Shown: positions 225 to 27,646 of the stretch, one piece after another
Numbering within the stretch: position 1 is the stretch's first letter
Layout of the letters: each line of letters begins with the position of its first letter
From: Spirochaetota bacterium
GTDB taxonomy: Bacteria; Spirochaetota; Spirochaetia; Treponematales; Breznakiellaceae
Reading direction: 5' to 3'
DNA length: 39,189 bases
Assembly (NCBI GenBank): GCA_023398155.1
Contig: JAEWSV010000338.1
Coordinates: forward strand, 1-39,189
Translations under genes and position numbers: made by a program
The notes under the pieces: model-generated
The model's database searches: none
The model's input: only the letters and a program-made list of their open reading frames with translations
What the model was told of the DNA's origin: nothing

Positions 225-452
225 TCATAAATCTTCCAGGGGAGCACCCCCTACGATCAGATCGCGGGCGGGTAACTCTGGCCAATCTACGGAATCGGGA
301 AAGCCTGGCTGTTGGGGAACGTCGCGCAGTTGCTGCCTATATTCTCTCCACCTGGCACGCTCGTTTGCTGTTAAGGTGGCGTCCGGACTCTGCGTCCAAT
401 CACAGGCCGAAAGGCGGCCATCTCGTTCAGATCGAGCTTCCTGAGATGTCAT
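225..452 (-). CDS. Tail fibre assembly/chaperone-like protein (C-terminal-domain-only, 75 aa)
   Basis: Contains DWTQSPDATLT...RWREYRQQLRDVPQQPGFPDSVDWPELP, the W-x-YR-x-LRDV...GFP..V.WP..P signature of phage tail fibre assembly proteins. Its ATG (452) overlaps the RT stop as ATGA. Confidence 0.5.
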   Translation of the reverse strand: MTSQEARSERDGRLSACDWTQSPDATLTANERARWREYRQQLRDVPQQPGFPDSVDWPELPARDLIVGGAPLEDL

Positions 453-1468: not shown

Positions 1469-1732
1469 GGAAAAGGCGCCGCGCGACGGCCAATCGGTAA
1501 GATTCGGACGCGCGCGGCTGTTGATATTTTCCCCTATCGGGGAAGGGATAAGACTCCTTTTCTCCATCGCTCTGTCCGTTCCTCCGTAAAGGAGCGGCTT
1601 CTGGCCTTGGAGTAGAGCCGGGCGAAAGCCGATGTTGCTGTTGACGTTCACACGGCGGTTGTTCAGGTTCAGTGCGGCCACCCCGGCATCAGCGCCGTTG
1701 TTCCAACTGCCGCCACGGATCGGCAAGCGCTC
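1469..1732 (-). ncRNA. DGR template RNA region (TR plus 147-nt spacer upstream of the RT start)
   Basis: TR at 1616-1732 is followed, in the transcription direction, by a 147-nt non-coding spacer before the RT ATG at 1468. BPP-1 has a comparable layout. Confidence 0.6.
1616..1732 (-). repeat. DGR template repeat (TR), 117 bp
   Basis: Identical to 2123-2239 except at 7 positions (1641, 1647, 1648, 1659, 1663, 1699, 1702). All 7 are T on the plus strand, which is A on the coding strand. Confidence 0.92.
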
Positions 1733-1752
1733 CATGTTACAGCCTTACCCCT

Positions 1753-2085
1753 TTAGGCGCTGGACTTGGTCCAGCCGCCTATCATGCGACCAATTTCCGT
1801 GAGCATTCCGCTCAATAGTTCATATTTTTTTATTGGAAGAAATTCCATTTTGAATCCGAGCCGAACGAGTATCTTTAATCGAGCGAGTTCGATGTCTGCA
1901 CGCTCTATCCACTTCCATTTGTCGCGCACAACATTCGCTCGAGCCAGGGACGCACCAACGTCAATGGACGCGCGTATCGTCTCCGCGGCGAGGGTGAATC
2001 GCTCGCTCTTGGGATATGATCGTAGCGATTCATATAGGTACAACGTCATGTCCTCCCATTTCTGATAGACCCGCATGGTTTCCAT
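1753..2085 (-). CDS. avd: DGR accessory variability determinant (Avd, about 110 aa)
   Basis: Small helical protein between VR and TR. C-terminus LTEIGRMIGGWTKS resembles the BPP-1 Avd end. The longer ORF to 2160 would overlap VR, so the ATG at 2085 (or 2076) is preferred. Confidence 0.8.
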   Translation of the reverse strand: METMRVYQKWEDMTLYLYESLRSYPKSERFTLAAETIRASIDVGASLARANVVRDKWKWIERADIELARLKILVRLGFKMEFLPIKKYELLSGMLTEIGRMIGGWTKSSA

Positions 2086-2113
2086 AATCAGATTCCAGGA
2101 CCCAGGATCCAGA

Positions 2114-5100
2114 TCACATAAAAGCCGGGCGAAAGCCGATGTTGCTGCTGACGAACACACGGCGGGTGTACAGGTTCAGTGCGGCCACCCCGGCATCAGC
2201 GCCGTAGTACCAACTGCCGCCACGGATCGGCAAGCGCTCGCCATAATTTCGTACGTACACGGCTCCTTTAGCCGCGAATGGCAGAGCGGCCGCCCCGTTA
2301 ATCTTATGGGCGATCATCAGCCGCATCATGAGCTGTCTCGTCGCTAGTGGCAGCGCGTCATAGCCTGCGCTCATCGTCACACTGCGGGCGCCGGACTCTC
2401 CGGAGATGTGCGTATAGTCGTAGTCGGGGGCCCCGGACCCTAGGCCGTTGCCGCAATCATCGGAAGGCACGGCCCTCGCTGAGGCCAAGATCGGGGCTCC
2501 GTTTATTGAGGCGACCGTATCCGTGCCGGTGGTTCCGGTCGAATCCAGATACACGCCCGTGGCAACCCATGATCCCTCCGGTTCGTCGTAATTATTGTCG
2601 AAGGTGGACGGAACATAGATTTGTCCATCGACCAGTTTCCATCCGGCCGCCCACTCCCAAACGTTACCAACAAGGTCGGCAACACCGTCGGGAGCATTGT
2701 TATGCCGCCAAGAATTTGGGCCGAGACCAAGCTTCGTCGCACCGTTTCCGCTCGCAACTCCTGGGATCGCTCCGTCGGCACGCTGAGCAGTCTCCCATAA
2801 GGCATCATGCGCTTGGCCCCAGGCCGTATTACCACGGGGCTGAGGGTGGCCTTCTTTGAGGCTCCAAAGGATGAGTCCGGCACGCTCAAGATCCGTGGCC
2901 ATGTGCCACCCGACGATGGTTGTTCCGTTATCCTTATTGGAGCAGGCCGCCTTGGCATTATCATAATTGATCGAAACCCAAGGGAATCTTCCAGGCATTG
3001 AGCAAGCGAGCCCCCCGTCATTGAATGCCTTATAGGCTCCGATGAAATACTCTGACTTTTCGACTCCACCCTTGACGAAGGCAGGGAATACACCAGATCC
3101 AAGGTCTGCGTGTATATCCTGCATCCTGAACTTGGGGACGACGTACATGATTGACGGCTTGCCGTTTTTGTCGTAGATAGCGGTTAGGCGACCGCCAGAG
3201 GATGATTCAACTTGGGATCGGAACTCGTCTTTGAGCTGGATTAGCACACTATGAAAAGGGGGCTTGGATTCATACTGCCTTAATGCAAAATCGTCAGGGA
3301 ATGCTGTAGCTGTTATCACTGCAGTAGAATTTGTTTCATTTGCTGTTGCAACGAATACACCATTACCGTAAGCAAGCGCTGACCAGTTACGCACGGCTGG
3401 CAAGGATTGCTGTGTCCAATCTATCCCATCTCGTGATGTGACTGCGTCGGCTGTTCCAAGGCTTAGTGCTACAAACAGGCCATTCCCATGGGCAACAGCC
3501 TCCCAAGACCCGGAGATTGGAATGGTTCTTTGCGTCCAGTCGATTCCATCTGGAGATGTCGCCGCGATTTCGGTCCCTGCCTTCATGATGACGAAGAGAC
3601 CATTTCCAAAGGCGATTGCATGCCATTGCCCTGAAGAAGGGAGATTTCGTTGCGTCCAAGCCTCTCCGTCCGGAGAAGTCAACGCGACAGCCCCATTATG
3701 TGGAGTAATGACAAATTTGCCGTTGCCAAAAGCGATAGCTGACAGGTATCCCACGGCAGGGAGATCCCGCTGTGTCCATGCCACTCCATTCGGAGAAGTA
3801 AAGGCACGACCATCACTGAAAGTTATTACAACGAATAGCCCATTCCCATAAGCAATGTCCCACCATACTCCTCCAGTGGGGAAAACTTGCTGTGTCCAGT
3901 TTTCTGCATCAGGAGATGTAACAATACCAGTTGGACCGTCACCAACCGCAACAAATATACCGTTTCCAAAGGCTATCCCATACCAAGCACCTGAGATTGG
4001 AATGGTTCTTTGCGTCCACACCTCTCCATCTGGGGAAGTCGCAATGACATTTGTACCGGCGAGCAAGGCTACATACATACCGTTTCCGTAAGCGATTGCT
4101 CGCCAGTATCCCGAAACGGGAAGCGTTCGCTGCAGCGCTTTCCAAACCAGCTCCGGTATCGTCCCTTCGCCGCCACCGCCTCCTCCCTCGGCCACCACGG
4201 CTTTGACGAACGCGGTCGTGGCGACCTGAGTGTTGTCCGATGCCGTGGCCGGAGTGGGGGCGGTCGGGGTGCCCGTAAAGGCGGGGCTCGCGAGGGGCGC
4301 GGCGGCCAGTGTTGTACGGGCGGCCGCCGCGTCGGCTGCGGCGAGGAGCGTCCGAGCGAACGCGGTCAGGTCGGTGGTGGAGAACGTGTCGGACCCAGTG
4401 GAGTAGATGAGCTTGTTGGCCGCGGTCGCGAGGGAAGCCAGGGCGGTAAGCGTCGCGTCCAGCGGTTGCTTCCCGCTGAGGGCCGTGGTGATGGTGGTTG
4501 CAAAGTTGGGGTCGTTACCCAACGCCGTGGCCAGTTCATTCAGGGTATCGAGCGTCGCCGGAGAGGAATTCACAAGGGCTGCCACCACGGCTTTGACGAA
4601 CGCCGTCGTCGCGACTTGGGTACTATCCGTGGCAGTTGCCGGCGTCGGGGCCGTCGGGGTGCCCGTAAAGGCGGGGCTCGCAAGAGGGGCCGCGGCGAGC
4701 GTCGTGCGGGCGGCCGCCGCATCGGCCGCGGCGAGGAGCGTCCGGGCGAAGGCGGTAAGGTCGGTGGTGGAGAACGTGTCGGACCCGGTGGCGTAGATGA
4801 GCTTGTTGGCCGCGGTCGCGAGGGCGGCAAGGGCGGTCAAGGTCGCGTCCAGCGGCTGCTTACCGCCGAGGGCCGTGGTGATCGTGGTGGCGAAGTTTGG
4901 GTCGTTGCCCAGCGCGGTGGCCAGTTCGTTCAGGGTGTCGAGCGTCGCCGGCGAGGAATTCACGAGAGCCGCGACCACGGCCTTGACGAACGCCGTCGTG
5001 GCGATCTGCGTGCTGTCGGTGGCCGTGGCCGGCGTCGGGGCGGTCGGGGTGCCTGTTAAGGCAGGGCTCGCGAGGGGGGCGGCGGCGAGCGTCGTGCGGG

Positions 5101-6265
5101 CGGCCGCCGCATCGGCCGCGGCGAGCAGCGTCCGGGCGAACGCGGTCAAATCGGTGGTGGAGAACGTGTCGGACCCGGTGGCGTAGATGAGCTTGTTGGC
5201 CGCGGTCGCGAGGGCGGCCAGGGCGGTCAGAGTCGCGTCCAGCGGCTGCTTATTGCCGAGGGCGGTAGCCATCGTGGTGGCGAAGTTGGGATCATCACCC
5301 AGCGCCGCGGCAAGCTCGTTGAGCGTATCGAGCGTCGTCGGAGCGGAATCGACGAGCGCGGCAACCACGGCCTTGACGAACGCCGTCGTCGCGATCTGGG
5401 TGGTGTTGGTTGCCGTCGCCGCGGTGGGCGCGGTTGGGACTCCCGTAAGCGCGGGGCTATTGAGAGGTGCCTTCGTGGCGTCGACGTCTTCTCGAGTCGT
5501 AGCTTCTGCCTGAAGGTCGGTCAGGCGGACGATGTGATTCGGGTCCGTGGGGACGCCAACCTTCGCCTGAGCGCCGAGGTCGCGGCACATGATCATCTCA
5601 GGATCGGCATCAGGGGTGGATCCATGGACCTCCTCCCCCTCGGCTGAGGCATGCACGTCTATGGCGTCGGTCCGATCTTGTATTTCTTGAGAAATAGCCG
5701 AGGCGAGGGCGTTGTCTCCGGCGGTTCGTGCGGACGCTTCCCCTTGCAGGTCGGTCAACCGGATGATGTGATTGGGGTCCGTGGGGACTCCCACCTTTGC
5801 CTGCGCCCCTGAATCGCGGGTCATGATCTGGCCGGCGACAGCCGCCGTCGTGGCTCCGTGAGCATTGCTACCCGTGGCGATCTTGTGCGCATCCAATTCT
5901 TCAAGGGCGGTGTCGACCTCTTCCCGCACCACGTTGTACAGCTCGGCGGCCAGGAGATCCCCGTACACATGGTAGTCCGCGTAAACGGCGGCATGCGGAG
6001 TGAGGAAGATTAGGGACCGGTAACAGGGGAATCCGGATAAATCCGACCCGATGGTATCCTGCTTGAAAAGGACATAGTCCTTGTTCAGCTCCAGGAGAGA
6101 CCCCAACGGATTGGCGGGATTCGTATAGAGGCGAAGGGTGTCGGCATAGAAAATATCATGGACCAAGAAGCACTCTTCGTTTGCGATCGGAGCCGCGATG
6201 AGTTCGCCTTGAATATCGTTTTCGACGAGAAGCCGATCGGGGTCGGTCTGAAGTAGGGTTTTCAT
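2114..6265 (-). CDS. Tail fibre / receptor-binding protein, DGR target (1383 aa)
   Basis: N-terminal fibre region, 130-aa tandem repeats with SPALTGTPTAPT...TQIATTAFV motifs and a Gly linker EGGGGGGEG. Then seven GNGxFVA...TSPDGxxWTQ blades. The C-terminal FGE-sulfatase/C-type-lectin-like domain (VADLVGNVWEW ... RGGSWYYGADAG ... GFRPAFM) contains the VR. Confidence 0.9.
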   Translation of the reverse strand: MKTLLQTDPDRLLVENDIQGELIAAPIANEECFLVHDIFYADTLRLYTNPANPLGSLLELNKDYVLFKQDTIGSDLSGFPCYRSLIFLTPHAAVYADYHVYGDLLAAELYNVVREEVDTALEELDAHKIATGSNAHGATTAAVAGQIMTRDSGAQAKVGVPTDPNHIIRLTDLQGEASARTAGDNALASAISQEIQDRTDAIDVHASAEGEEVHGSTPDADPEMIMCRDLGAQAKVGVPTDPNHIVRLTDLQAEATTREDVDATKAPLNSPALTGVPTAPTAATATNTTQIATTAFVKAVVAALVDSAPTTLDTLNELAAALGDDPNFATTMATALGNKQPLDATLTALAALATAANKLIYATGSDTFSTTDLTAFARTLLAAADAAAARTTLAAAPLASPALTGTPTAPTPATATDSTQIATTAFVKAVVAALVNSSPATLDTLNELATALGNDPNFATTITTALGGKQPLDATLTALAALATAANKLIYATGSDTFSTTDLTAFARTLLAAADAAAARTTLAAAPLASPAFTGTPTAPTPATATDSTQVATTAFVKAVVAALVNSSPATLDTLNELATALGNDPNFATTITTALSGKQPLDATLTALASLATAANKLIYSTGSDTFSTTDLTAFARTLLAAADAAAARTTLAAAPLASPAFTGTPTAPTPATASDNTQVATTAFVKAVVAEGGGGGGEGTIPELVWKALQRTLPVSGYWRAIAYGNGMYVALLAGTNVIATSPDGEVWTQRTIPISGAWYGIAFGNGIFVAVGDGPTGIVTSPDAENWTQQVFPTGGVWWDIAYGNGLFVVITFSDGRAFTSPNGVAWTQRDLPAVGYLSAIAFGNGKFVITPHNGAVALTSPDGEAWTQRNLPSSGQWHAIAFGNGLFVIMKAGTEIAATSPDGIDWTQRTIPISGSWEAVAHGNGLFVALSLGTADAVTSRDGIDWTQQSLPAVRNWSALAYGNGVFVATANETNSTAVITATAFPDDFALRQYESKPPFHSVLIQLKDEFRSQVESSSGGRLTAIYDKNGKPSIMYVVPKFRMQDIHADLGSGVFPAFVKGGVEKSEYFIGAYKAFNDGGLACSMPGRFPWVSINYDNAKAACSNKDNGTTIVGWHMATDLERAGLILWSLKEGHPQPRGNTAWGQAHDALWETAQRADGAIPGVASGNGATKLGLGPNSWRHNNAPDGVADLVGNVWEWAAGWKLVDGQIYVPSTFDNNYDEPEGSWVATGVYLDSTGTTGTDTVASINGAPILASARAVPSDDCGNGLGSGAPDYDYTHISGESGARSVTMSAGYDALPLATRQLMMRLMIAHKINGAAALPFAAKGAVYVRNYGERLPIRGGSWYYGADAGVAALNLYTRRVFVSSNIGFRPAFM
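2123..2239 (-). repeat. DGR variable repeat (VR), last 39 codons of the fibre gene
   Basis: 117 bp matching TR. The 7 differences are at 2148, 2154, 2155, 2166, 2170, 2206 and 2209. TR-encoded N residues become Y, Y, Y, T, F and S in VR. Confidence 0.92.
3300..4150 (-). repeat. Seven tandem ~46-aa (~138-bp) coding repeats, beta-propeller-like (Asp-box-like TSPDGxxWTQ)
   Basis: Seven copies of W..IA[YF]GNG.FVA....G.....TSPDG..WTQ, each with one GNG motif. This stretch is visibly more AT-rich than the neighbouring fibre sequence. Confidence 0.7.
4191..5465 (-). repeat. 390-bp (130-aa) tandem coding repeats, 3 full units plus a partial fourth
   Basis: Antisense ORFs 4407-4796, 4797-5186 and 5187-5513 all begin MSLLAAVA with an exact 390-bp period. 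The sense repeat is SPA[LF]TG.PTAPT.ATA..TQ.ATTAFVKAVVAALV...LDTLNELA.ALG.DPNFATT... Confidence 0.9.
5513..5830 (-). repeat. Two imperfect ~85-bp direct repeats (5513-5596 and 5746-5830) in the fibre N-terminal region
   Basis: They encode IMCRDLGAQAKVGVPTDPNHIVRLTDLQ and IMTRDSGAQAKVGVPTDPNHIIRLTDLQ. Confidence 0.75.
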
Positions 6266-18614: not shown

Positions 18615-19676
18615 TTACGCGTACGCCGTGAGGCCGCCGAGCGAGGCGCCCTTCTTGGCGGCGGGATCGCTCGGGTCGCTGAGCATGATCTCGCCCCGGA
18701 CCACCTGTTCGGGCAGGGCTTCCAGAATCTTCCGGAAGACGTCGAAGGCGGATTCCTTCTCTCCCGACTGCGATTCCTTCCCGTCGGACAGCTCGATGAT
18801 GTCGGCGATGGGGAGGCTGTCGGCCAGGGCGATCAGCTCTTTCTCCAGGCCCTTGGGGATCTTCCCTTCGGCGGCCTTGAGGAGCGCGTCCTTCTTGGAC
18901 TTCCGGAGGCCCGCCATGAGGGAGGCAAGCCGCGGGTCCGCCGGGCGGTCGGAGAGCTCGATAGCCTCGTCCGGGTACTTTTCGGCCAGCCGCTTGAGCT
19001 GGTCCTTGAGCCGGCCGACTTCGGCCGTCAGCGCGGGGTCGGCTCCCGGCTTGGCGCCTTCGGCCGACTTGGCCTTCAGGGCCGCGTATGCGGCCGCGGC
19101 GGTTTTCTTCTTGGCCTCGTCGGTCATCGCCGCAATGGCCTCTTCAATGGGATCCATCGAGTCCTCCTTGTGGGGTTGCGCACCGGCATCGCCGGCCTCG
19201 TCGTTCAAATGCATGGTTTGGTTGTCGGGGTTGGGGAACATGTCCGCCTCGGGACAGTCCGAGAGCTTGATGGCGTCGGGGATACCGAGTTCCCGGAGCC
19301 CCTTCACCGCGCCGGGCTCGGAGCCGCACATCTTGAGATGGTGAAGATATCGCTTGCCGTCTTCGGCTCTCCGGGGCGCGCCGATGGACCAGGTAGGGTA
19401 TTGCCCTTTTTCGTAGGCGCTCTGCATGAGGTCGTTCAAGGTGACCACGCCGAAGAGGCCGGTCTCTCCCGGCCGTGATTCGCTGGGGCCGCTCCAGAGC
19501 TTATCCACGGTTCCGAGGGCGGGGGCCCAATCGGCGAGGGCGTGCGGCCAGATCGTGACCGCCGCGCTCTTGGGAGCGTAGGTCTCCACGATCTCGTCGA
19601 TATCCTTCTTCGTGACCACCGTGCCCTTCTGCCCGTGTACGCCGGTCCGGCTCAGCTCCAGTTTCTTCGTAAGCAT
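18615..19676 (-). CDS. Capsid scaffold / prohead protease (P2 gpO / Mu I-like), 353 aa
   Basis: N-terminus LELSRTGVHGQKGTVVTKKDIDEIVETYAPK resembles gpO FFRIGVEGDT.DGRVISAQDIQEMAETFDP. The C-terminal half is acidic and helical. Confidence 0.6.
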   Translation of the reverse strand: MLTKKLELSRTGVHGQKGTVVTKKDIDEIVETYAPKSAAVTIWPHALADWAPALGTVDKLWSGPSESRPGETGLFGVVTLNDLMQSAYEKGQYPTWSIGAPRRAEDGKRYLHHLKMCGSEPGAVKGLRELGIPDAIKLSDCPEADMFPNPDNQTMHLNDEAGDAGAQPHKEDSMDPIEEAIAAMTDEAKKKTAAAAYAALKAKSAEGAKPGADPALTAEVGRLKDQLKRLAEKYPDEAIELSDRPADPRLASLMAGLRKSKKDALLKAAEGKIPKGLEKELIALADSLPIADIIELSDGKESQSGEKESAFDVFRKILEALPEQVVRGEIMLSDPSDPAAKKGASLGGLTAYA

Positions 19677-19815: not shown

Positions 19816-20262
19816 TCATTGTCTTGTTCTTAATTCGTCATGCAGCGCGACAGGGTCATAATCTTGAGGATACAGGCGGAACTGCGCGGTCTTCGCCTCC
19901 GAGTAGACAACCAACCAGCCCCCTATAGTTTGCCAGAACAATGAAACCTTGATCTTCCCAGTTTTGAATGGTCTTCCATACTTTTCGATAAGTGTATCGA
20001 TGATATCGTCGGTCGACATTGATTCCGATTGAAACTCGATCATAGAAAGCATTCGAAGTTGGAACAGATATTTGCTCTGAAATGGGTGTCCCCAAAGTGT
20101 CTTTTCATACACGAGGGCCGCATCCTCTTCCGCTATTGGGGCACCCTCCGCCTTGATCACTTGATTCTTTGTCCCATACCACGCCGCCTTCATATACTCT
20201 TGAGCCCCGGCGGAGGTAGCCGCAAGGATCAATAACAGGGGAATAACGCGGTTCATGGTCAT
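19816..20262 (-). CDS. Secreted protein of unknown function (148 aa) next to the repressor
   Basis: Start at 20262 follows AAGGAG. Signal peptide MTMNRVIPLLLILAATSAGAQE. Visibly AT-richer than the phage backbone, with its own terminator. Confidence 0.6.
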   Translation of the reverse strand: MTMNRVIPLLLILAATSAGAQEYMKAAWYGTKNQVIKAEGAPIAEEDAALVYEKTLWGHPFQSKYLFQLRMLSMIEFQSESMSTDDIIDTLIEKYGRPFKTGKIKVSLFWQTIGGWLVVYSEAKTAQFRLYPQDYDPVALHDELRTRQ

Positions 20263-20463
20263 TCGATGGCTCCTTCTTTCGATACCAGCCGTTTCATCAA
20301 AAATATACCCGGCCCGCCATAACACCTGAAAAGTTGTCTTCGTCGGTCATCGTCTTCGCTGTATTTGCGCGCTCAGGCCGATTTCTGGCGTTCAATTCGC
20401 GTTCAAGGCTAAAACTAGTACCTCCGGAAGACGGACCGGTTTCGGGCCGCTCTTGGCGATTAT

Positions 20464-21195
20464 TCAGTACGGATGCTTGTGAAGCCATCCGATCACCTTC
20501 CCCTCGATCTTGACGGCCTCCATGTCAGCCCCCTTGAGCACCCGCGGCGCATAGCGTTCGTTCTCGCTGATGATGCGAATCTCCGCTCCGAAAGGGTCAA
20601 ACTCCACGCGCTTCACGAGCAGCTTGTCATTGATGGAGAGGACATAGACGCCGTCTCCAGGATCGTCGATCGGGACGAAGAATACCACGTCCTCGTCGAA
20701 AAGCCCGATCTTTGTCATGGAGTCGCCTTTGACCTTGAGAGCACGAACGGTCGCTGGATTATAGGGAGCCAGGAAGCTTGTGATGATAGGGATGGGGCGC
20801 GTAGTTTGATACTCCGCGATGTCGTGTCCGGGGCCTGCTGAAACTTTTGAATTGTAGAATGGAACTAAGACGATATCGGAATCCTCTGAGGAAAGGCTCA
20901 TTGGAATGACGTGTCTCCCGCGTAGTTGGATGGCATCCGATGAGTCATTAGATTCTACCGTTGATAAAACTATCTCTGGCCGCAAGTGCATTTCTCCACG
21001 CCCTGTTAATATCCAGTTCGAATCGATACCAAACACATTTGTGATTGCCGAAATTACATCCGCCCTTGGGATCGTTCCTCTTTGGAATAAATTGCTAAAA
21101 GTGCTTTGATTCAAGCCAATTTTTGCCGCGAAAGCGGTATCTGAGAGCTTTGTTTCATCAACTACTAGCCGAACGCGAGCCAGGATGTCATTCAT
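20464..21195 (-). CDS. CI/LexA-like phage repressor (HTH plus S24 peptidase), 243 aa
   Basis: N-terminal HTH LSDTAFAAKIGLNQSTFSNLFQRG. C-terminal KVKGDSM...LLVKRVE carries the Ser/Lys autocleavage motifs. Confidence 0.85.
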   Translation of the reverse strand: MNDILARVRLVVDETKLSDTAFAAKIGLNQSTFSNLFQRGTIPRADVISAITNVFGIDSNWILTGRGEMHLRPEIVLSTVESNDSSDAIQLRGRHVIPMSLSSEDSDIVLVPFYNSKVSAGPGHDIAEYQTTRPIPIITSFLAPYNPATVRALKVKGDSMTKIGLFDEDVVFFVPIDDPGDGVYVLSINDKLLVKRVEFDPFGAEIRIISENERYAPRVLKGADMEAVKIEGKVIGWLHKHPY

Positions 21196-21222: not shown

Positions 21223-21251
21223 TTGACAATAAACACCGATGGGTTTATTGT
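21223..21251 (+). promoter_or_regulatory. Early promoter (TTGACA-17-TATTGT) with an embedded palindromic operator
   Basis: -35 at 21223-21228 and -10 at 21246-21251. The 9-bp inverted repeat ACAATAAAC (21226-34) / GTTTATTGT (21243-51) spans the spacer and -10. Confidence 0.65.
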
Positions 21252-21277
21252 GTTCGAGGTGGCCCTAAATAGGGCCG

Positions 21278-21300
21278 AAAAGTGCCACTCTGGCACTTTT
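21278..21300. other. Perfect 10-bp inverted repeat AAAAGTGCCA ctc TGGCACTTTT (bidirectional terminator/attenuator or protein site)
   Basis: Lies about 25 nt downstream of the early promoter. A/T runs on both sides give U-tracts in either direction. Confidence 0.45.
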
Positions 21301-21326: not shown

Positions 21327-21332
21327 ATTCTA
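21327..21332 (-). promoter_or_regulatory. -10 element TAGAAT (minus strand), fourth copy of the cargo-promoter motif, facing the repressor gene
   Basis: Minus strand reads CCGATAGTAGAAT, compared with TCGTGGTAGAAT in the cassette promoters. Possible -35 TAGTCA lies 17 nt upstream. Confidence 0.4.
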
Positions 21333-21574
21333 CTATCGGACGTTTCGCTTGACTATTGGAAGTTTTTCCAGCGGGAGCGCGCCTGAATGAAGGCTCCGCT
21401 CCACGCGAGGGTTCATTGACAGCGAAGCATCGATCTTCTGAACGCCCGGTACCGTCGGCCGCGCGCGTCCAAAACCCAATACGACGGAACGTGCGGCCGC
21501 GACAGTCGGACCTCAAGTCCGGGAGTGCGATGCTCCGGCGGCCGCGTTAGCCCCGAATGGGGAAAGGAGCATGT

Positions 21575-21844
21575 ATGGATGCTATTCATGACGAGTTCCT
21601 TGAGGAGCCTTCGGCAACATCAAGGAAGAAAAGAGAAGTTGTTGAGCTATTCAGCCTTCTGGTCTACAAGCTGGATGGGAGCCTTAAAATCGCATCGAGA
21701 ACGAGCAGCGGGCCTTTCGAAAACGCGCTCATTGTTGACGTGGCCGGCAATCGATATTCGGTGGTGGGCGTCGATGCGGATGAGACGGGCACGGCGTTGC
21801 AAATCAGGATGGAAAAAAAGTCATATCGGCCGGACCCAAGGTAA
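21575..21844 (+). CDS. Hypothetical protein (89 aa), first early-leader ORF
   Basis: ATG at 21575 lies 5 nt after AAGGAG. Converges on the 21859-22260 gene with a 14-nt gap. Confidence 0.5.
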   Translation: MDAIHDEFLEEPSATSRKKREVVELFSLLVYKLDGSLKIASRTSSGPFENALIVDVAGNRYSVVGVDADETGTALQIRMEKKSYRPDPR

Positions 21845-21858
21845 ATTGCCGGGGCCGT

Positions 21859-22260
21859 TCAATCCTTCTGCGTCTTGCCTTCCCTAAGGACGGTGTTGAT
21901 CAACGCATTAGCCATGTCATCCTCAATCTTGCGCCTTTTCACCTCTGCTTTTGAGCGATCCAAGCGAGCCTCATGGGTGATGATTGTTGCCATCTCTTTC
22001 CATGTATAAGCGTCATACCCGAGAATCCCGTACTTCTGGCGTGCTTCGGCAACCGATTGTCTCGAAACAAGGATTATAACCGATTCCATATCCTGGTATT
22101 CCATCAAGAAATCGTAATAAGCCCGCAGGATATGCCGATAAGGCGATCGCTTGTGTGCCACCGACGCATCGTGGCGGTTGGAGCAAAAACATCGCGTAAC
22201 GAGGCCATAAGCCAGCACCTGCGCGATTTGTTCTAAATCCATCGAATCGACCTTCGCCAT
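21859..22260 (-). CDS. Cargo cassette A protein (133 aa), unknown function
   Basis: GGAGG SD with its own TGgTACAAT promoter. No motif recognised. Confidence 0.6.
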   Translation of the reverse strand: MAKVDSMDLEQIAQVLAYGLVTRCFCSNRHDASVAHKRSPYRHILRAYYDFLMEYQDMESVIILVSRQSVAEARQKYGILGYDAYTWKEMATIITHEARLDRSKAEVKRRKIEDDMANALINTVLREGKTQKD

Positions 22261-22290
22261 GCCTCTCTTCCTCCGCTCACGAGATGATCG

Positions 22291-22350
22291 ATTGTACCAC
22301 GACGTAGCCCCTAGAAAGCAAAACCCCGCCCAGTGAGGCGAGAGGGGCGC
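22291..22350 (-). promoter_or_regulatory. Cassette A module: imperfect hairpin plus U-run, then extended -10 promoter TGgTACAAT
   Basis: Minus strand reads ...GGGCGGGGTTTTGCTTTCTAGGGGCTACGTCGTGGTACAATCG. The -10 is at 22296-22291. Confidence 0.55.
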
Positions 22351-22361
22351 AAAGGAGTTGT

Positions 22362-22745
22362 CTATGATCGAATCAAGGCATCACGGAAGAAATCGTGAAT
22401 CAGTTCCGGCGTGTTCGCGCCTGGCGGAAGACGAATCCCGCCGCGGGCGTCCGCCGAGCTCCGAAAAAAGTCATTCGCGCGGAGCAGACGGAACACCAGC
22501 AATATCTTCAACTCTGTCGGAGCTTCGGAGAGGATTCCGGCTCTTTCTTCGGGATTGGAATCAAGGATTTTCAGAACGAACTCATTCAGTTCCTTCCGAT
22601 TGCGCTGCTCTCTTTCGGGAAGGGTTCTTCCTGCTTCCTGAAAAGCACCCCAAACCTTTTCAATCTCCCTCATCGGGAACACCTCTTCCCGAAACGAGTC
22701 CCACTCCAGAAGAACGGAGCTAGTTAGGATAAATTGCTCGGCCAC
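22362..22745 (-). CDS. Cargo cassette B protein (127 aa), unknown function
   Basis: GTG start at 22745 after GAGGG. Its own TGgTAGAAT promoter has the -10 at 22787-22782. Confidence 0.55.
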   Translation of the reverse strand: MAEQFILTSSVLLEWDSFREEVFPMREIEKVWGAFQEAGRTLPEREQRNRKELNEFVLKILDSNPEERAGILSEAPTELKILLVFRLLRANDFFRSSADARGGIRLPPGANTPELIHDFFRDALIRS

Positions 22746-22781
22746 GTATTCACCCTCATACCGCTTTCGAACTGATATCCC

Positions 22782-22937
22782 ATTCTACCACGACCTATTC
22801 CCCTAGAAAGAAAAACCCCGCGCCGTAAGGCGCGGGGATCCAACAAAAACGCCCGCTACACCCCAGCTTTGAACGGGCAAGGTGTAACGAGCGAAAGGAT
22901 GGAAAGAGTATGCAGCAGAAATTGCGCGATGTCAGAC
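22782..22937. repeat. Repeat copy B (~156 bp): minus-strand promoter and terminator plus a plus-strand ner-type translation start
   Basis: Roughly 85 percent identical by eye to 23446-23601. Contains hairpin CCCCGCGCC gtaa GGCGCGGGG (22816-22837) with a minus-strand U-run, then AAGGATGGAAAGAGT-ATG-xAG-AAA-TTG-CGC-GAT-GTC. Confidence 0.8.
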
Positions 22938-23149
22938 AAGGAGGAATAGCCATGAACGAGGAAGCGCCATTTGACGAGCCTGTCGATGCCGCAATCCGGG
23001 CTGCGTATCTCAAGCCGAGCCCCATGAACGCCGTTGAAATCGCGTCGCTCGTCAAGAACATGTTCGGAATAGAGCTGGGCGTGGAACGCATCAAAGCGCG
23101 CTTGGCATCGTTACCCCCTCATCTCGTCGGGTATTACCAAGGGGCGTAG
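22910..23149 (+). CDS. Hypothetical small protein (79 aa; alternative start 22952 after AAGGAGG)
   Basis: The first 8 codons (MQQKLRDV) duplicate the Ner-like gene start (MTQKLRDV). Its stop lies 3 nt from the stop of the convergent gene 23153-23410. Confidence 0.5.
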   Translation: MQQKLRDVRQGGIAMNEEAPFDEPVDAAIRAAYLKPSPMNAVEIASLVKNMFGIELGVERIKARLASLPPHLVGYYQGA

Positions 23150-23152
23150 GGA

Positions 23153-23410
23153 TCATAATCCGGAAGAGAGTGTCTCCTTAAGGGAATCGAGGAGCTTGCG
23201 CTCTTTGAAGTATCCCTCCGGGCGAAGTTTCAACAAGAAAAGGGCGCGGATCAATGAGGCCATGCGCTCGGCGGAATTCACGCCTGCTGCGAAGTCAATG
23301 GATCGGTCGAGGTCGCCAAAGTCGGTATCCTCCGAAACGAATTCCTTCCGGGAAATCGCAAAGGACTTGATGGCGGCAGAGGCGATTAGCCGTGTCTCGT
23401 CATTCGTCAT
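23153..23410 (-). CDS. Cargo cassette C protein (85 aa), unknown function
   Basis: AGGAGG SD with its own TGgTAGAAT promoter (-10 at 23451-23446). Confidence 0.55.
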   Translation of the reverse strand: MTNDETRLIASAAIKSFAISRKEFVSEDTDFGDLDRSIDFAAGVNSAERMASLIRALFLLKLRPEGYFKERKLLDSLKETLSSGL

Positions 23411-23445
23411 TCAAAACCTCCTCTATATGGCTTGTTCAGCTCCAG

Positions 23446-23601
23446 ATTCTACCACGACCTAATCTTCCAGAAATCAAAAACCCCGCACCGTAGGGCGCGG
23501 GGATCCAACGAAAACGCCCGCGACACCAAAGCTTTGGACGGCGTGGTGTAACGGGCGAAAGGATGGAAAGAGTATGACTCAGAAATTGCGCGATGTCAAA
23601 C
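23446..23601. repeat. Repeat copy C (~156 bp), upstream of and including the Ner-like gene start
   Basis: See copy B. Hairpin CCCCGCACC gtag GGCGCGGGG lies at 23481-23502. Confidence 0.8.
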
Positions 23602-23846
23602 GGGGGAGACCCTTCCCCAAGGACCCGGACCGCAAGGCCCGCGTCATGGCCGTTGTATGGGACCGAGGCTTGTCCGTTTCAGACCTGGCAAATTCTATGG
23701 ATGTCGACCAGAGCACTTTGTCAAAAGTAATCTGGGGTGTCCGTCGGTCGCCGGTGATGGAGACGCGGATCGCGGCTTACTTCGGGATGACGCGGGACGA
23801 GCTGTTCCCGCGGAAGCGGGCGGAAAGCCGGAGGGACGCGGCATGA
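23574..23846 (+). CDS. Ner-like HTH DNA-binding regulator (90 aa)
   Basis: LSVSDLANSMDVDQSTLSKVIWGVRRSPVMETRIAAYFGMTRDELFP. It is the first gene of the transposition operon. Confidence 0.55.
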   Translation: MTQKLRDVKRGRPFPKDPDRKARVMAVVWDRGLSVSDLANSMDVDQSTLSKVIWGVRRSPVMETRIAAYFGMTRDELFPRKRAESRRDAA

Positions 23847-24217
23847 GCGCAATCGGCTACAGGGTCGACCGCGAGGCCGGCGTCCTTTGGATCACCCACC
23901 GCGGCAGGGGCGACGAGCTTTCGATGAACCTCCGTCACTACGGCATCGATCACGTTCCCGCATTGCGAAACGCCTCGGTAGGCATCACCTTCGATCCGGC
24001 CCTGACGGAAAAATCCTTCCTGGCATTCCGCGCCGCGGCGATCGCGGTTGTTGAAGCCCTGACCGCCCGCCGGGGCGTGGCTTATGGAGAGCAACGCGCT
24101 TTCGGGCTTGATCTTGCGGCCGTTCAGGCGCACCAAGTCAAGAACACCTCGGAACAGGGCCGCGACTTGGCTGAGTGGGTTCGATCCACGCGCGAGAAAG
24201 CGGGAGGCATAGCATGA
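23843..24217 (+). CDS. Hypothetical early protein (124 aa)
   Basis: ATGA overlaps at both ends, with coding-like composition. Confidence 0.5.
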   Translation: MSAIGYRVDREAGVLWITHRGRGDELSMNLRHYGIDHVPALRNASVGITFDPALTEKSFLAFRAAAIAVVEALTARRGVAYGEQRAFGLDLAAVQAHQVKNTSEQGRDLAEWVRSTREKAGGIA

Positions 24218-24534
24218 ACGAGCAGCCGAAACCGTGTCCCTTCTGCGGAAGGGATTCCGCCTTTTTGTACGGATGCGTCGGGGGCCACTTCGTCAAGTGT
24301 ATCTCCTGCAGCTCTAGGTCGGCCGTCTATCCGCTCAAGAGTGAAGCCATCGCCGCCTGGAATCGCCGAGCCGAGTCGATCGATTACGCGAACGCCGTCG
24401 TCGACAACATGGCTGGAGCAATCGAGCTTCTCACCGAATCCCGAGACGCGCTCGGGGTAGTGGTAGCGGATCTCAAAGCCAAGACCGACCGCCTTGAGGC
24501 CGAGCTTTCGAAGAAACACCGGAGGGACGAATGA
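24214..24534 (+). CDS. Lar-family (restriction alleviation-like) zinc-finger protein (106 aa)
   Basis: KPCPFCG...VKCISC...EAIAAWNRRAE is the typical Lar-family pattern. A C-terminal predicted coiled-coil extension follows. Confidence 0.65.
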   Translation: MNEQPKPCPFCGRDSAFLYGCVGGHFVKCISCSSRSAVYPLKSEAIAAWNRRAESIDYANAVVDNMAGAIELLTESRDALGVVVADLKAKTDRLEAELSKKHRRDE

Positions 24535-24806
24535 GCGACACCACCACCATGACCTGCCGAAAGATAGACATTCCGCCCTGCCGGCCCGAGCCGACTTACG
24601 CGATACGCAGGGGGGTATTCGGATCCTTGTTCTACAGCAGGGGGCGGCGGTATTACGTCGAGATCCCGCGCCCCCTGTTCCCCGACGATCCGGCTGTATT
24701 CAGGCGGACGCAGTTTGACTCCTATCGCGATGCTGCCGCGTTCTTCAGCCACATCCAGAATCAGTTTCACCTGCTGGGGTCTATGGAGGCCTCCGTATGC
24801 GATTGA
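24531..24806 (+). CDS. Hypothetical early protein (91 aa)
   Basis: ATGA-coupled and overlaps the transposase start by 10 nt. Confidence 0.45.
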   Translation: MSDTTTMTCRKIDIPPCRPEPTYAIRRGVFGSLFYSRGRRYYVEIPRPLFPDDPAVFRRTQFDSYRDAAAFFSHIQNQFHLLGSMEASVCD

Positions 24807-26707
24807 TCACCACCGCCGAAGTACAGAACGCCTTCCAGGTCACGAGCCGAAAGGAGGCGATCCGAAAGGCCAGACAGCTCGGGGCAGTCTTCTACGAGGG
24901 GAGCGGCGGCTTCATGTGGGACCTGGAAACGCTGCCCCAGGAGGTGCAGCTCGCGCTACTCGCCAACGAACGCGGGCAGGACGCCAACGCGCCGCTACCC
25001 GAGAGCTTCCTCATCGCCCCGGAGAAAAACCGGAAAAAGGCGCTCGCCATCGCCGCGCTCATCGCGACATGGAAGGACTACGAGACGTCGCTCGGCGGTC
25101 GCGTGGAAGACTTCGTCGACCTCTACAATAAATGGCAGATCGGGGCCGGTATCAGGCGCCTGCTGAATAAGTCGATTTCCGTTCCGACGTTCTACCGGTG
25201 GCTCGAAGCCTTCGATTCGGGCGGCATCGACGCGGTGACGCCGAAATGGGGCAACGCCAAATCCGGGGCGGGGAGCAAGGCGCTCTCGCTGCTGGAGCAG
25301 GACATCGCCAAGGCCTTCTACCTTCACCCCAACAAATGGAGCTCCGCGAAGGTCCATCGCGAGATGGAAAGGATCTACGGGACCAAAGCGAGCGCGCAGA
25401 CCGTGGCCCGGTACCTCGCCAGCATTCCCCCGCACATCGCGAGCTACTACCGCGACGGAGAAACCAAGTTCAAGGCCAAGCACCTGCAGTACATCGTGGG
25501 GAATCCCCTGCGGTACGAATCGATGGAGATGGTCGTATCGGACCACCACAACTGGGACTTCCTCGTCGAACGGAAGGGGAAGATATTCCGGCCGTGGATC
25601 ACCGTTTTCCAGGATCAACGATCGAGGAAAATCCTTTCCTGGTCGCACAGCCTGTATCCGTCCGGCCAATCCATCGCCGAGGCGCTGTACATGCTCCTGG
25701 TCCGGTACGGCGCTCCGAAGGTCCTGCATATCGACAACGGTAAGGACTACCGAGGGCAGTACCTCAACGGGAAGAAGGTTGAGGTGACCATCGAGAACAA
25801 TGGGATGAGCGAAGAGTCCCAGGTGGAGATCCAGGGCGTGCTCGCCGGGCTCGGGATCAGGGTGATCTTCGCCCTGCCGTACCACGGCCAGTCCAAGCCC
25901 ATCGAGCGGCATTTCGGCACGTTCGCCGGGGACTTCGCACGGGAGTTCAACACCTACGTGGGAAGCAACACGGTGGCTCGCCCCGAAGAGAGCCGGTTCT
26001 ATTACCGGAAGATCGGAAAGCGCGAGAAGAAGGAAGTAGGCGTCACCTACGACGCCTACTTGTCCGCCTGGGAGGCGTACGTCGAGCAGTGGAACGCGAC
26101 CTGGCGCCACTCCGGCGTCGGCATGGAAGGGCGTACCCCCAACGAAGTGTTCTACGAGAACTGGCGGACCAAGCGGTCGGTTTCACCGGAGTACCTGGAG
26201 ATCGCCTTCGCCAAGACGGACACGCGCGTCGTGCAGAGGGACGGCGTCGAGCTGGACCACAACCGGTACTGGGGGCCGGAGCTCCGGCGCTACGTCGGGA
26301 CGACGGTCCTCGTGAAGCGGACCTTCGCGGAACAACATCGCGCGATCGTGTTCGATCTCGATGGCCGTTTCTTGACCTACGCGGAGGCGGACTACTTCGC
26401 CGAAACGGGAGACCTTGCCGCGGACAACGAACGGGTGAACGAAGCTCGGAAATTGTCCCTGGAAGACATCAAGGAGTACGCCAAGGGTATCCCGGAGCTT
26501 GAAGAGGGCAAGCGGGGCGCCATCGACTTCGCCCAGGCCAACCGCGGCATGTACGCCGAACCTCCCGAGCCGGAGAATCTCAGGATCGAACAGGTGGTGA
26601 ACGGAAGCTTCGAGCTCCCTCCGCCCGCGGAACGGCCGCCCTTGTCGGTCGTGAAACCCGAGACCAGGCGCAAGCTTCGGTCATCCCTCGATGAATCAGT
26701 GGAGTGA
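24797..26707 (+). CDS. DDE transposase, MuA-like (636 aa)
   Basis: Candidate catalytic triad in VVSDHHNWDF, LHIDNGKDYRG and GQSKPIERHFGTF. A MuB-like ATPase follows. Confidence 0.85.
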   Translation: MRLITTAEVQNAFQVTSRKEAIRKARQLGAVFYEGSGGFMWDLETLPQEVQLALLANERGQDANAPLPESFLIAPEKNRKKALAIAALIATWKDYETSLGGRVEDFVDLYNKWQIGAGIRRLLNKSISVPTFYRWLEAFDSGGIDAVTPKWGNAKSGAGSKALSLLEQDIAKAFYLHPNKWSSAKVHREMERIYGTKASAQTVARYLASIPPHIASYYRDGETKFKAKHLQYIVGNPLRYESMEMVVSDHHNWDFLVERKGKIFRPWITVFQDQRSRKILSWSHSLYPSGQSIAEALYMLLVRYGAPKVLHIDNGKDYRGQYLNGKKVEVTIENNGMSEESQVEIQGVLAGLGIRVIFALPYHGQSKPIERHFGTFAGDFAREFNTYVGSNTVARPEESRFYYRKIGKREKKEVGVTYDAYLSAWEAYVEQWNATWRHSGVGMEGRTPNEVFYENWRTKRSVSPEYLEIAFAKTDTRVVQRDGVELDHNRYWGPELRRYVGTTVLVKRTFAEQHRAIVFDLDGRFLTYAEADYFAETGDLAADNERVNEARKLSLEDIKEYAKGIPELEEGKRGAIDFAQANRGMYAEPPEPENLRIEQVVNGSFELPPPAERPPLSVVKPETRRKLRSSLDESVE

Positions 26708-26710
26708 TCT

Positions 26711-27646
26711 ATGTCGGATATTCAGACGATCGTGAATTTGAAAGACGAGTTTCGGGCCTTCCTCGCGGAAACCGGTCAGTCGCAGCGACAGGCGTCCATC
26801 AATATGGGCAAGGCCGCAAGCGCCATCAGCGAATGGCTCAACGACAAATACCCCGGAACCGTCGCGGAGCTCGAAGATGCAGTCCGGCGCTACCTCAAGC
26901 GAGAGCGGAACCGGCGCATCCTCAAGAAACCGGGCATCGTGAAGACGGAGAACTACGGCAGGATCTGGAACGTCATCGCCATCGCCCACGAGAGCAAGTT
27001 CATCGGGCTGATCACCGGAGATGCCGGAACGGGGAAGACGGTATCCGCCGAATCCTACAACACGGACAATCCCGCGACGAGCATCTACGTGCTGGTCAAC
27101 GGGCTGACCACGAAGAAGATCATCCTGCAGCAGCTCGCCGAAGCGCTCAAGATCGACATGAGCGGGACGGACAACGATCTTGCCCATCGGGTGTCCATGG
27201 CTCTTATCGATGGCGACTACGTCGTGATCATCGACCAGGCCGACTATCTCAAAGGGCCGATCCTGGAAATGCTCCGGCACGTGGTCATGGACAAAGGGCA
27301 CTCGGGGCTCGTGCTCATCGGGCTTTCTCGGCTCCTGTACCAGTTGGACAACATCCGCGACGACCATGAACAGATCACGAGCCGCATCGGCATCTTCTAC
27401 CAGACCCAGGCCATGAAGGATTCGGACGCGGCGAAGATCATGAAAACCCTTTGGCCGAATATCGGGAACGACGTCGCGAAGGACGCGGCGAAGTTCGCGG
27501 GCGGGAGCTATAGGGTCCTCACGAATCTCATCGAGAACATCCAGCGCACCTTGATCGTCAACAAGCTCGATCTCCCCGACTCGGAGGTCGTTGCCGTGGC
27601 GATCCAGGAAATGTTCAAGAGGGCCGGCAGGAAGGCAAAGGGGTAA
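26711..27646 (+). CDS. MuB-like AAA+ transposition ATPase (311 aa)
   Basis: N-terminal HTH (QSQRQASINMGKAASAISEWLN), Walker A GDAGTGKT and Walker B VVIIDQAD. Confidence 0.8.
   Translation: MSDIQTIVNLKDEFRAFLAETGQSQRQASINMGKAASAISEWLNDKYPGTVAELEDAVRRYLKRERNRRILKKPGIVKTENYGRIWNVIAIAHESKFIGLITGDAGTGKTVSAESYNTDNPATSIYVLVNGLTTKKIILQQLAEALKIDMSGTDNDLAHRVSMALIDGDYVVIIDQADYLKGPILEMLRHVVMDKGHSGLVLIGLSRLLYQLDNIRDDHEQITSRIGIFYQTQAMKDSDAAKIMKTLWPNIGNDVAKDAAKFAGGSYRVLTNLIENIQRTLIVNKLDLPDSEVVAVAIQEMFKRAGRKAKG

Follow-up and report, generated by a model that had tools for sequence, protein, structure and literature searches.

The window analysed here is the whole 39,189-nt stretch of contig JAEWSV010000338.1 (assembly GCA_023398155.1, positions 1 to 39,189 of the forward strand) from a Spirochaetota bacterium of the Breznakiellaceae, and it carries a 38.9-kb transposable (Mu-like) phage. 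The subject of this study is the interval between the CI-type repressor gene of this phage and its ner-like gene (Table 1). Three open reading frames (ORFs) on the minus strand, here called cassettes A, B and C, each follow a short module made of a hairpin, a U-run and a promoter motif, and two small plus-strand ORFs, p1 and p2, are interleaved with them. A candidate early promoter, Pe, faces the three cassettes from the repressor side. An earlier reading of the window made from its letters, hereafter the sequence-only reading, had described the interval as an early leader carrying three antisense cargo genes.

Table 1. Coordinates of features in the repressor-ner interval and elsewhere in the phage
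Feature	Position	Strand	Details
Diversity-generating retroelement (DGR) reverse transcriptase	449-1735	-	RVT_1 family match
DGR accessory protein bAvd	1753-2160	-	
DGR template/variable-repeat-like pair	1616-1732 and 2123-2239		117 nt, 94% identical
CI-type repressor	20464-21195	-	Domain matches to Phage_CI_repr helix-turn-helix and Peptidase_S24
Pe, early promoter candidate	21223-21251	+	TTGACA-17-TATTGT; overlapped by palindrome at 21226-21251
p1 ORF	21575-21844	+	89 aa; first plus-strand ORF after Pe; codon score 0.072; called in public assemblies
Cassette A ORF	21859-22260	-	133 aa; isoelectric point (pI) 8.5; GGAGG Shine-Dalgarno (SD) sequence; codon score 0.108; called in public assemblies
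Module A	22291-22345	-	Weak hairpin 22343-22324 and UUUUGCUUUC, then TCGTGGTACAAT (22302-22291); -10 hexamer 22296-91; 3' of the B stop codon at 22362
Cassette B ORF	22362-22745	-	127 aa; GTG start; pI 5.2; SD; codon score 0.046
Repeat copy 1	22781-22937		Module B, long hairpin, ner-type SD, ATG and nine ner-like codons
Module B	22782-22837	-	Strong hairpin 22837-22816 and U5, then TCGTGGTAGAAT (22793-22782); -10 hexamer 22787-82
Antisense-RNA-like element, copy B	22805-22935	-	CTGACA-17-CATACT (22935-22907); long hairpin and terminator (22902-22805)
p2 ORF	22952-23149	+	65 aa from the ATG behind AAGGAGG (79 aa from the ner-like ATG at 22910); codon score 0.200; called as 65 aa
Cassette C ORF	23153-23410	-	85 aa; pI 5.4; GAGGAGG SD 6 nt from the ATG; codon score 0.191
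Repeat copy 2	23445-23601		Module C; finishes inside ner codon 10
Module C	23446-23502	-	Hairpin 23502-23481 and U5, then TCGTGGTAGAAT (23457-23446); -10 hexamer 23451-46
Antisense-RNA-like element, copy C	23470-23599	-	TTGACA-17-CATACT (23599-23571); long hairpin and terminator (23566-23470)
ner-like gene	23574-23846	+	Domain match to HTH_35
Lar-like (restriction-alleviation) gene	3' of ner, same early region	+	Profile searches
MuA, Mu DDE transposase	24797-26707	+	Domain matches
MuB	26711-27646	+	Domain matches

A predicted terminator and promoter module is repeated before three minus-strand ORFs

The sequence TCGTGGTANAAT occurs three times in the 39 kb, always on the minus strand and only at the sites that the sequence-only reading had named, against 0.21 occurrences expected. 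The promoter motif TCGTGGTA(C/G)AAT is found at these sites, again on the minus strand throughout, and none of 100 shuffles reached three copies. No further copy was found in the window with one mismatch allowed, and TGNTANAAT is confined to the same three sites within the window. Each copy of the motif lies 12-18 nt past a hairpin and U-run, and the ORF behind it is the longest local minus-strand ORF. The -10 hexamers stand 30, 36 and 35 nt before the start codons of A, B and C, giving leaders of ~24-30 nt, with a GGAGG-type SD between each promoter motif and its ORF start. The order of hairpin, U-run, extended -10 and ORF, the -10 positions, the leader lengths and the good SDs were thus reproduced as first described.

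Hairpins B and C, with nine G/C-rich pairs, a tetraloop and U5, are canonical terminators (-21.6 kcal/mol, z -4.2, and -19.4 kcal/mol, z -3.1, respectively), whilst hairpin A is weak (-13.1 kcal/mol, z -0.5). Hairpin C contains a G.U pair that becomes a C.A mismatch on the plus strand. Because the hairpins on the plus strand have A-runs before them and GATCCAAC or CGCAAAGG after them, with no U-run, termination in the minus direction alone is a fair reading of the sequence, as had been proposed. The modules had also been called near-identical. This holds for the 12-mer and for B against C (89% over 157 nt) but not for module A, which is 84% identical to B and 63% to C over a 38-nt hairpin stretch and 82-88% identical to both over a 17-nt promoter stretch. 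What module A has in common with them is just ~55 nt that begin at the hairpin foot and run to the -10, and all three alignments end at the -10 hexamer. Searches of viral and metagenome contigs with the module patterns returned no match apart from one chance match within a gene of a Pseudobdellovibrionaceae metagenome-assembled genome.

At the cassette promoters no -35 match is better than 3/6, and the half-site ACAATAAAC of the operator-like palindrome at Pe is not present. The cassettes would be driven by -35-independent extended -10 promoters, TGGTA(G/C)AAT, read by host RNA polymerase with its primary sigma factor. Since they carry no operator half-site, these promoters would be active regardless of repression, in the lysogen and during infection alike.

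Coding potential of the five small ORFs

To score coding potential we used a codon log-odds score trained on 20 long genes of the same phage. For reference, the repressor scores 0.096 and ner 0.059, whilst for 'shadow' ORFs lying within real genes the median is -0.07 and the 95th percentile 0.12. A, C and p2 (Table 1) score within the span seen for bona fide small genes of the phage, and the antisense frames of all three are negative. Gene calls in public assemblies include the same five ORFs. The interval is therefore not the simple early leader first described, since the plus-strand ORFs p1 and p2 also score as coding and are interleaved with the cassettes; the antisense placement of the cassettes stands. 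The GC content of the cassettes is 0.51-0.55, compared with ~0.60-0.67 across most of the phage. At third codon positions (GC3) A, B and C reach 0.59, 0.59 and 0.67 against 0.72 for core genes, with values of 0.57 for p1, 0.66-0.70 for p2 and 0.72-0.74 for ner and beyond. GC is low in the repressor gene and the gene downstream of it as well.

It might be argued that the minus-strand ORFs are not genes at all, and that the interval is a long structured leader with protein-binding or DNA-level repeats (for repressor, Ner or a transposase enhancer) or a set of duplication scars. This seems to us very improbable: it would be out of the ordinary for a 38.9-kb phage to leave about 1.2 kb without genes, and behind every one of the three motif copies an SD and the start of the longest local ORF come at a fixed distance. 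ORFs this long do arise by chance at this GC and the inverted repeats could bind dimeric proteins, but the U-runs at the hairpins are found on one strand only. The absence of homologues in everything searched and the equivocal codon score of B would also fit non-coding DNA; A and C, by contrast, score like real genes where their antisense frames do not, and the B product folds confidently. We take A, B and C as real genes, B on somewhat different evidence, since it is kept because of its SD, its promoter and a confident single-sequence fold despite its codon score.

A 157-nt duplication brackets p2 and C

Modules B and C lie at the ends of a 157-nt direct repeat. Beyond the hairpin and promoter, the repeat contains the 70 nt 5' of ner, the ner SD, the ATG and about nine codons, which read MTQKLRDVK in one copy and MQQKLRDVR in the other. 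Homology ends just 5' of the AAGGAGG SD of p2, and p2 and C are bracketed by the two copies. The simplest history suggested by this arrangement starts from a unit '...cassette - module - ner', which either became duplicated or recombined with a relative having 'p2 - C - module - ner'; either event would account for the bracketing of p2 and C by module copies. GC3 fits separate origins, being 0.66-0.70 for p2 and C, 0.57-0.59 for A, B and p1, and 0.72-0.74 from ner onward. The ~55-nt terminator and promoter would then be a portable junction that recombination or duplication spread between the cassettes, and p2 and C would have arrived with the 157-nt duplication. Within the repeat no plus-strand promoter for ner was found.

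The tail-to-tail gaps of 14 nt (p1/A) and 3 nt (p2/C), correctly given in the sequence-only reading, raise the question of whether the convergent pairs are units, in which a lysogen effector (A or C) would be met on induction by an early neutralising partner (p1 or p2). The logic would be that of defence with self-immunity or of toxin and antidote, reinforced by convergent transcription. The two members of a pair have similar GC3, which differs from one pair to the other (0.57 for p1 and 0.59 for A; 0.66-0.70 for p2 and 0.67 for C), and p2 and C sit between the repeat copies as if gained in one event. However, the likeness in GC3 comes from very short genes, B has no partner, and no similarity to toxin-antitoxin or defence families was found. 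We consider paired action of this kind distinctly improbable.

A candidate antisense RNA against ner

Each copy of the repeat also holds, on its minus strand, a promoter-like site followed by a long hairpin and then by hairpin B or C. In copy C the promoter-like site, TTGACA-17-CATACT, overlaps the ner start codon, the CAT of CATACT being the ner ATG. It is one of only four sites of at least 10/12 in the window, Pe being another (chance ~0.0013 per 40-nt window and strand). The 97-98-nt elements fold on the minus strand at -45.9 kcal/mol (z -5.1) in copy C and -49.1 kcal/mol (z -5.8) in copy B, and z for the long hairpin taken by itself is -4.1 and -4.2 in the two copies. The long hairpin of copy B (22838-22902) reaches -27.8 kcal/mol (z -4.2) on the minus strand compared with -17.7 kcal/mol (z -1.7) on the plus strand, and the alifold consensus, from two sequences, is -45 kcal/mol on the minus strand against -33 kcal/mol on the plus strand. 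Both copies preserve every one of the 27 minus-strand pairs, and where the pairs vary, in three cases (CG/UG, AU/UG and GU/GC), the plus strand would have mismatches. The canonical U-run of the element occurs on the minus strand only. Searches of Rfam returned below-threshold matches only, all of them to small RNA families on the minus strand and of a generic small-RNA-plus-terminator kind, the best being anti-hemB (24.2 against 49.5 bits).

These features suggest that hairpins B and C may primarily terminate a duplicated cis-antisense RNA of ~90 nt. We give this a little less than an even chance; it would add to the cassettes rather than exclude them. On the same footing, the transcript is predicted to start near 23564, ~7 nt after the -10, with 5'-CCAUCCUUUC, exactly complementary to the ner SD region AAAGGAUGG, to fold into a 15-17-bp hairpin and to end at hairpin C. 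Pairing with the ner leader, or for copy B with the p2 leader, would block ribosome binding or trigger cleavage. This would damp the ner-MuA-MuB operon in the lysogen, with the cassette promoters placed directly behind the terminator of the RNA. Hairpin C would more naturally terminate a small antisense RNA than serve as a terminator without an upstream gene.

Several points hold this prediction back. Only two copies exist and they are duplicates of each other, so that promoter and structure are not independent and covariation carries almost no weight. The -35 of copy B is degraded to CTGACA. Conservation of the block could be due to the ner N-terminus and SD that it also encodes, every Rfam score stays below threshold, and no third copy of the 97-nt element was found in the window or in L001, the one relative described below. 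Pairing of the long hairpin with the terminator in a 2:3 antiterminator was considered and rejected, as it amounts to 6 bp only and was judged by eye to be too weak.

A comparable cis-antisense RNA of a mobile element is RNA-OUT of IS10. With RNAs of the sar, OOP and RNA-OUT kind the candidate shares full complementarity to the ribosome-binding site of its target and a target that heads a regulator or transposase operon. It differs in being predicted only, in being duplicated together with the initiation region of its target, in having another promoter directly after it and in lying outside the Rfam families. Phage cis-antisense RNAs are an established class, and P22 sar and lambda OOP share with the candidate an opposite-strand promoter at the 5' end of the target, a short stable RNA and an intrinsic terminator (PMC5415839).

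A wider proposal can be built on this RNA. The 157-nt repeat might be a portable two-faced module, whose plus side is a ner-type ribosome-binding site masked by its own antisense RNA and whose minus side is a constitutive extended -10 promoter; we offer this tentatively and think it doubtful. It is equally speculative that duplication of this two-faced module captured p2 and C, putting p2 under ner-like antisense control.

Predicted transcription through the interval

The early promoter placed at 21223 by the sequence-only reading is present as TTGACA-17-TATTGT and is spanned by a perfect operator-like palindrome, ACAATAAAC-N8-GTTTATTGT. A third exact operator half-site lies at 38961-38969, ~100 nt from the right end of the phage. 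Just past the predicted Pe start, 21270-21300 holds a symmetric A4-hairpin-U4 (AAAAGUGCCA CUC UGGCACUUUU), which could attenuate transcripts in either direction. A promoter-like site on the minus strand (TAGTCA-17-TAGAAT, 21327-21355) faces Pe, and if both sites are real the repressor and early transcripts overlap by ~60 nt.

On the minus strand, the C transcript would run antisense across p2 and copy B of the structured element and be ended by hairpin B; the geometry bears out the earlier claim that it is antisense to p2 before it reaches this hairpin. The B transcript would be ended only weakly by hairpin A and may read into A. No minus-strand terminator-like site was found between A and the repressor gene, and the A transcript would probably continue antisense through p1 towards that gene and may cross Pe into the operon of the repressor and a secreted protein. 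That operon is closed by the strongest terminator in the window (19792-19759; 15-bp stem, -27.9 kcal/mol, z -6.9). The predicted terminator is thus strong for C, at hairpin B, and weak for B, at hairpin A, and nothing terminator-like follows A. In the transposable phage Fc02 a distal transcript, pC1, carries exclusion genes into the repressor gene and is antisense to an early gene (PMC9936078), and read-through from A into the repressor operon would be similar.

After induction, Pe transcripts would pass p1, the hairpins, p2 and ner, colliding head-on with the cassette promoters; they are expected to read through the hairpins because these have no U-tract on the plus strand. Transcriptional interference is plausible in both directions, and the switch proposed earlier is a matter of geometry, not a result. 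Expression of the cassettes in the lysogen had been argued from their pointing the same way as the repressor. This argument does not suffice, as the whole late structural arm also lies on the minus strand and orientation by itself is not evidence of such expression.

Homology, structure and possible functions of the small proteins

The products of A, B, C, p1 and p2 gave no match of any weight in Pfam, PHROGs, PADLOC or NCBIfam; the sole PADLOC match was of A to PDC-M27A (12 bits, E 0.013), with none for the other four. A word-indexed search of 5.8e9 clustered proteins returned only the self-match for each of A, B and C. An exhaustive phmmer search of 1.8 billion representatives with A recovered only P0004, a repetitive lipoprotein, which we rejected as spurious. 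Sequence searches of the PDB and tblastn searches of phage and plasmid genomes with the small proteins gave no match, and pairwise comparison of A, B and C revealed no paralogy. The single-sequence AlphaFold2 (AF2) model of B is a seven-helix fold (pLDDT 76.6, pTM 0.68), and the Foldseek check that had been suggested, run for this model, found no structural neighbour in the PDB or BFVD. That the products match nothing recognised therefore holds for all five small proteins in the protein, family, defence and structure libraries searched.

The sequence-only reading had further proposed a site of lysogenic-conversion, exclusion or defence cargo. No evidence from the profile, sequence or structure searches links the proteins to such roles, and only the position of the five ORFs prompts the guess that their products act on the host, whether in exclusion, defence or counter-defence. 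The more conventional choice for a surface or exclusion protein made in the lysogen would be the 169-aa product of 19816-20325 (minus strand). It has a signal-peptide-like N-terminus and no family match, and its gene lies directly downstream of the repressor.

One specific role deserves separate mention, namely immediate-early counter-defence, in which the cassettes would provide anti-restriction, anti-CRISPR-like or other host-takeover functions from promoters that fire at DNA entry, before and independently of Pe. Small ORFs without homologues are typical of anti-defence genes, as are the acidic products of B (pI 5.2) and C (pI 5.4); the same early region holds a Lar-like restriction-alleviation gene, and the lack of an operator half-site at the promoters would suit such timing. 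A constitutive promoter nevertheless fits defence and counter-defence alike, and no known anti-defence family was matched in PHROGs, Pfam or BFVD. The cassettes are also oriented against the early operon, and their position and direction match lysogen-expressed genes of Fc02 (PMC9936078). We regard this role as unlikely.

Relatives of the locus

The 14 other loci retrieved over the interval, which come from at least nine assemblies or runs, match it at 100% identity, save for a scaffold N-gap within ner in locus L011; an apparent 'insertion' in ner there was rejected as this gap. Scans of viral, genome and metagenome collections with MuA, MuB, the capsid and degenerate patterns returned only one truncated IMG/VR contig, L001, with a MuA 70-71% and a MuB 81% identical. 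Compared with window positions 23574-24806, L001 1-1170 carries other genes just 5' of MuA, including a 216-aa coiled-coil-like ORF. There is no Lar or ner within reach of this contig, and one small ORF common to L001 and the window was recognised by eye (YYVE...RRTQF.SYRDA motif). Because the two differ just 5' of MuA, the pre-transposase region appears, from these sequences, to be hypervariable in this lineage.

Comparison with known gene cassettes

Taken together, we favour, by a modest balance of the evidence, a tandem array of three autonomous moron-like cassettes of ORFs without relatives (ORFans), lying between the CI-type repressor and ner and opposed to early transcription. Self-contained ORFan cassettes of the moron or PeSL type, here stacked in antisense orientation within the early control region of this Mu-like phage, would extend a known kind. 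Morons are defined in a review that gives HK97 gene 15 as an example (PMC3594210). The cassettes resemble them as predicted independent transcription units of deviant GC, with their own promoter and mostly their own terminator, in a prophage and beside the immunity region. An own promoter is found at the sequence level for each, as an extended -10 that stands 30-36 nt 5' of the starts and occurs at three sites only. An own terminator is found for C, at the strong hairpin B, whilst B is followed by hairpin A, which is weak (z -0.5), and no terminator-like site was found for A before the repressor gene. Base composition is deviant in GC as in GC3 (see above). What differs from morons is that three units stand in tandem with one repeated junction, antisense within an early operon and interleaved with plus-strand ORFs.

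PeSLs of T4-type phages are short composite promoter/terminator motifs before ORFans, proposed to provide homology for modular shuffling (PMC2839356, PMC4122927). The modules here likewise combine a sigma-70-type promoter with a stable terminator stem-loop, in three copies, directly 5' of ORFans and in a variable region, the pre-MuA region differing between the window and L001. The 157-nt duplication around p2 and C is the kind of product that such recombination gives, although the other contigs are identical and showed no exchange. PeSL hosts are lytic myoviruses with ~50 copies, unlike the temperate transposable phage with three copies described here. The T4-type early promoter, with -35, -10 and AT-rich upstream sequence, is not found: here an extended -10 has no recognisable -35 (at best 3/6) and the stem-loop lies 5' of the promoter.

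In the B3-like transposable phage Fc02, olg1 and olg2 lie upstream of the repressor, are transcribed in the lysogen from the distal promoter pC1 and have been shown to confer exclusion (PMC9936078). Both phages have a repressor and ner, with small genes 5' of the repressor, co-oriented with it and antisense to an early gene. In Fc02, however, ner directly adjoins the repressor and it is the gene after ner that is overlapped, whereas the cassettes here lie between Pe and ner and have individual modules. No sequence similarity of the cassettes to the Fc02 genes was found. An integron cassette array was rejected, as there is no integrase in the interval, the long hairpin is present in two of three units, the attC core-site consensus RYYYAAC/GTTRRRY is mismatched and the units have their own promoters.

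Several observations weigh against the array of autonomous cassettes. At least three ORFs of at least 85 aa on one strand occur in 8.6% of shuffles, so length alone is not significant, and the codon score of B is not separated from that of an antisense ORF at 22395-22727 (0.063). The AF2 model of A is unusable (pLDDT 40), and with no homologue of the small proteins in the libraries searched, purifying selection is not demonstrable. The identical loci offer no natural variant with gain or loss of a cassette, and L001, the sole relative, stops 1.1 kb upstream of MuA, short of the interval. Hairpin C has no upstream minus-strand gene to end, unless the antisense-RNA promoter is real. Finally, the criteria for promoters and terminators are of the E. 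coli type and may not be those of the host.

The phage and its other genes

The ends of the phage were mapped from differing host flanks. Contigs of other assemblies are identical to the window as far as 129 on the left and 39061 on the right and then continue into three different flanks at each end, and the phage is therefore placed at 129-39061. Its left end begins TGTAACCG... (TGTAAC...) and its right end finishes ...AAATTACA (...TTACA), of the TG...CA type. The differing flanks therefore indicate that the phage either moves to many sites by transposition or is packaged together with host DNA that varies. Host DNA makes up positions 1-128 and 39062-39189, and the right flank encodes a fragment that by eye resembles DNA-3-methyladenine glycosylase I (Tag). 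The flanks show no matching 5-bp duplication, and the contig may join flanks of different insertions.

Along with these ends and their varying flanks, a DDE Mu transposase, a MuB ATPase, Ner and a repressor place the phage among Mu-like elements. Pfam matches in the phage comprise DDE_2, Mu-transpos_C, AAA_22, HTH_35, Gam, GemA, Portal_Mu and Mu_F, and Gam, GemA, terminase, Mu portal and MuF lie to the right of MuB. A blastn search of GenBank phages found no DNA-level similarity, and the transposase is less than 30% identical to known Mu-like phage transposases. On this sequence evidence the phage is a previously unseen transposable (Mu-like) phage.

The genome is laid out in two arms. Late genes run leftward on the minus strand, from a 353-aa ORF (18615-19676; presumed protease/scaffold, no Pfam match) and the capsid gene through the tail to a DGR, whilst early genes, terminase, portal and MuF run rightward. 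The repressor is thus in mid-genome and the head genes are divided between the arms, unlike in Mu. Curvibacter phage TJ1 (MH766655) likewise has a CI-type repressor in mid-genome with divergent arms. The DGR occupies 449-6265 of the left arm on the minus strand. The second member (2123-2239) of its template/variable-repeat-like pair sits at the 3' end of a 1383-aa gene (2114-6265), which also holds tandem repeats of 390 nt (four copies) and 120 nt (seven copies). The other two of the four promoter-like sites of at least 10/12, at 446 (plus strand) and 495 (minus strand), stand back to back near the left end, where the DGR reverse-transcriptase gene has its 3' end.

Significance of the array

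If the modules are inactive, the interval is an ordinary patch of hypothetical genes. If they work, a repeated terminator/promoter junction stacks and insulates accessory genes inside the early operon of the phage itself, and the PeSL idea would extend from lytic T4-type phages to temperate elements. An antisense RNA against the ner ribosome-binding site, if true, would control the Ner/transposase operon at the RNA level, which to our knowledge has not been described before in a Mu-like phage. Should the two-faced module also be true, stacked minus-strand promoters facing Pe would add an RNA layer to lysis/lysogeny control, and the immunity region would be a nursery for ORFan genes. The three delimited ORFans, for which billions of proteins offered no relative, would then lend themselves readily to screens for exclusion, defence or counter-defence.

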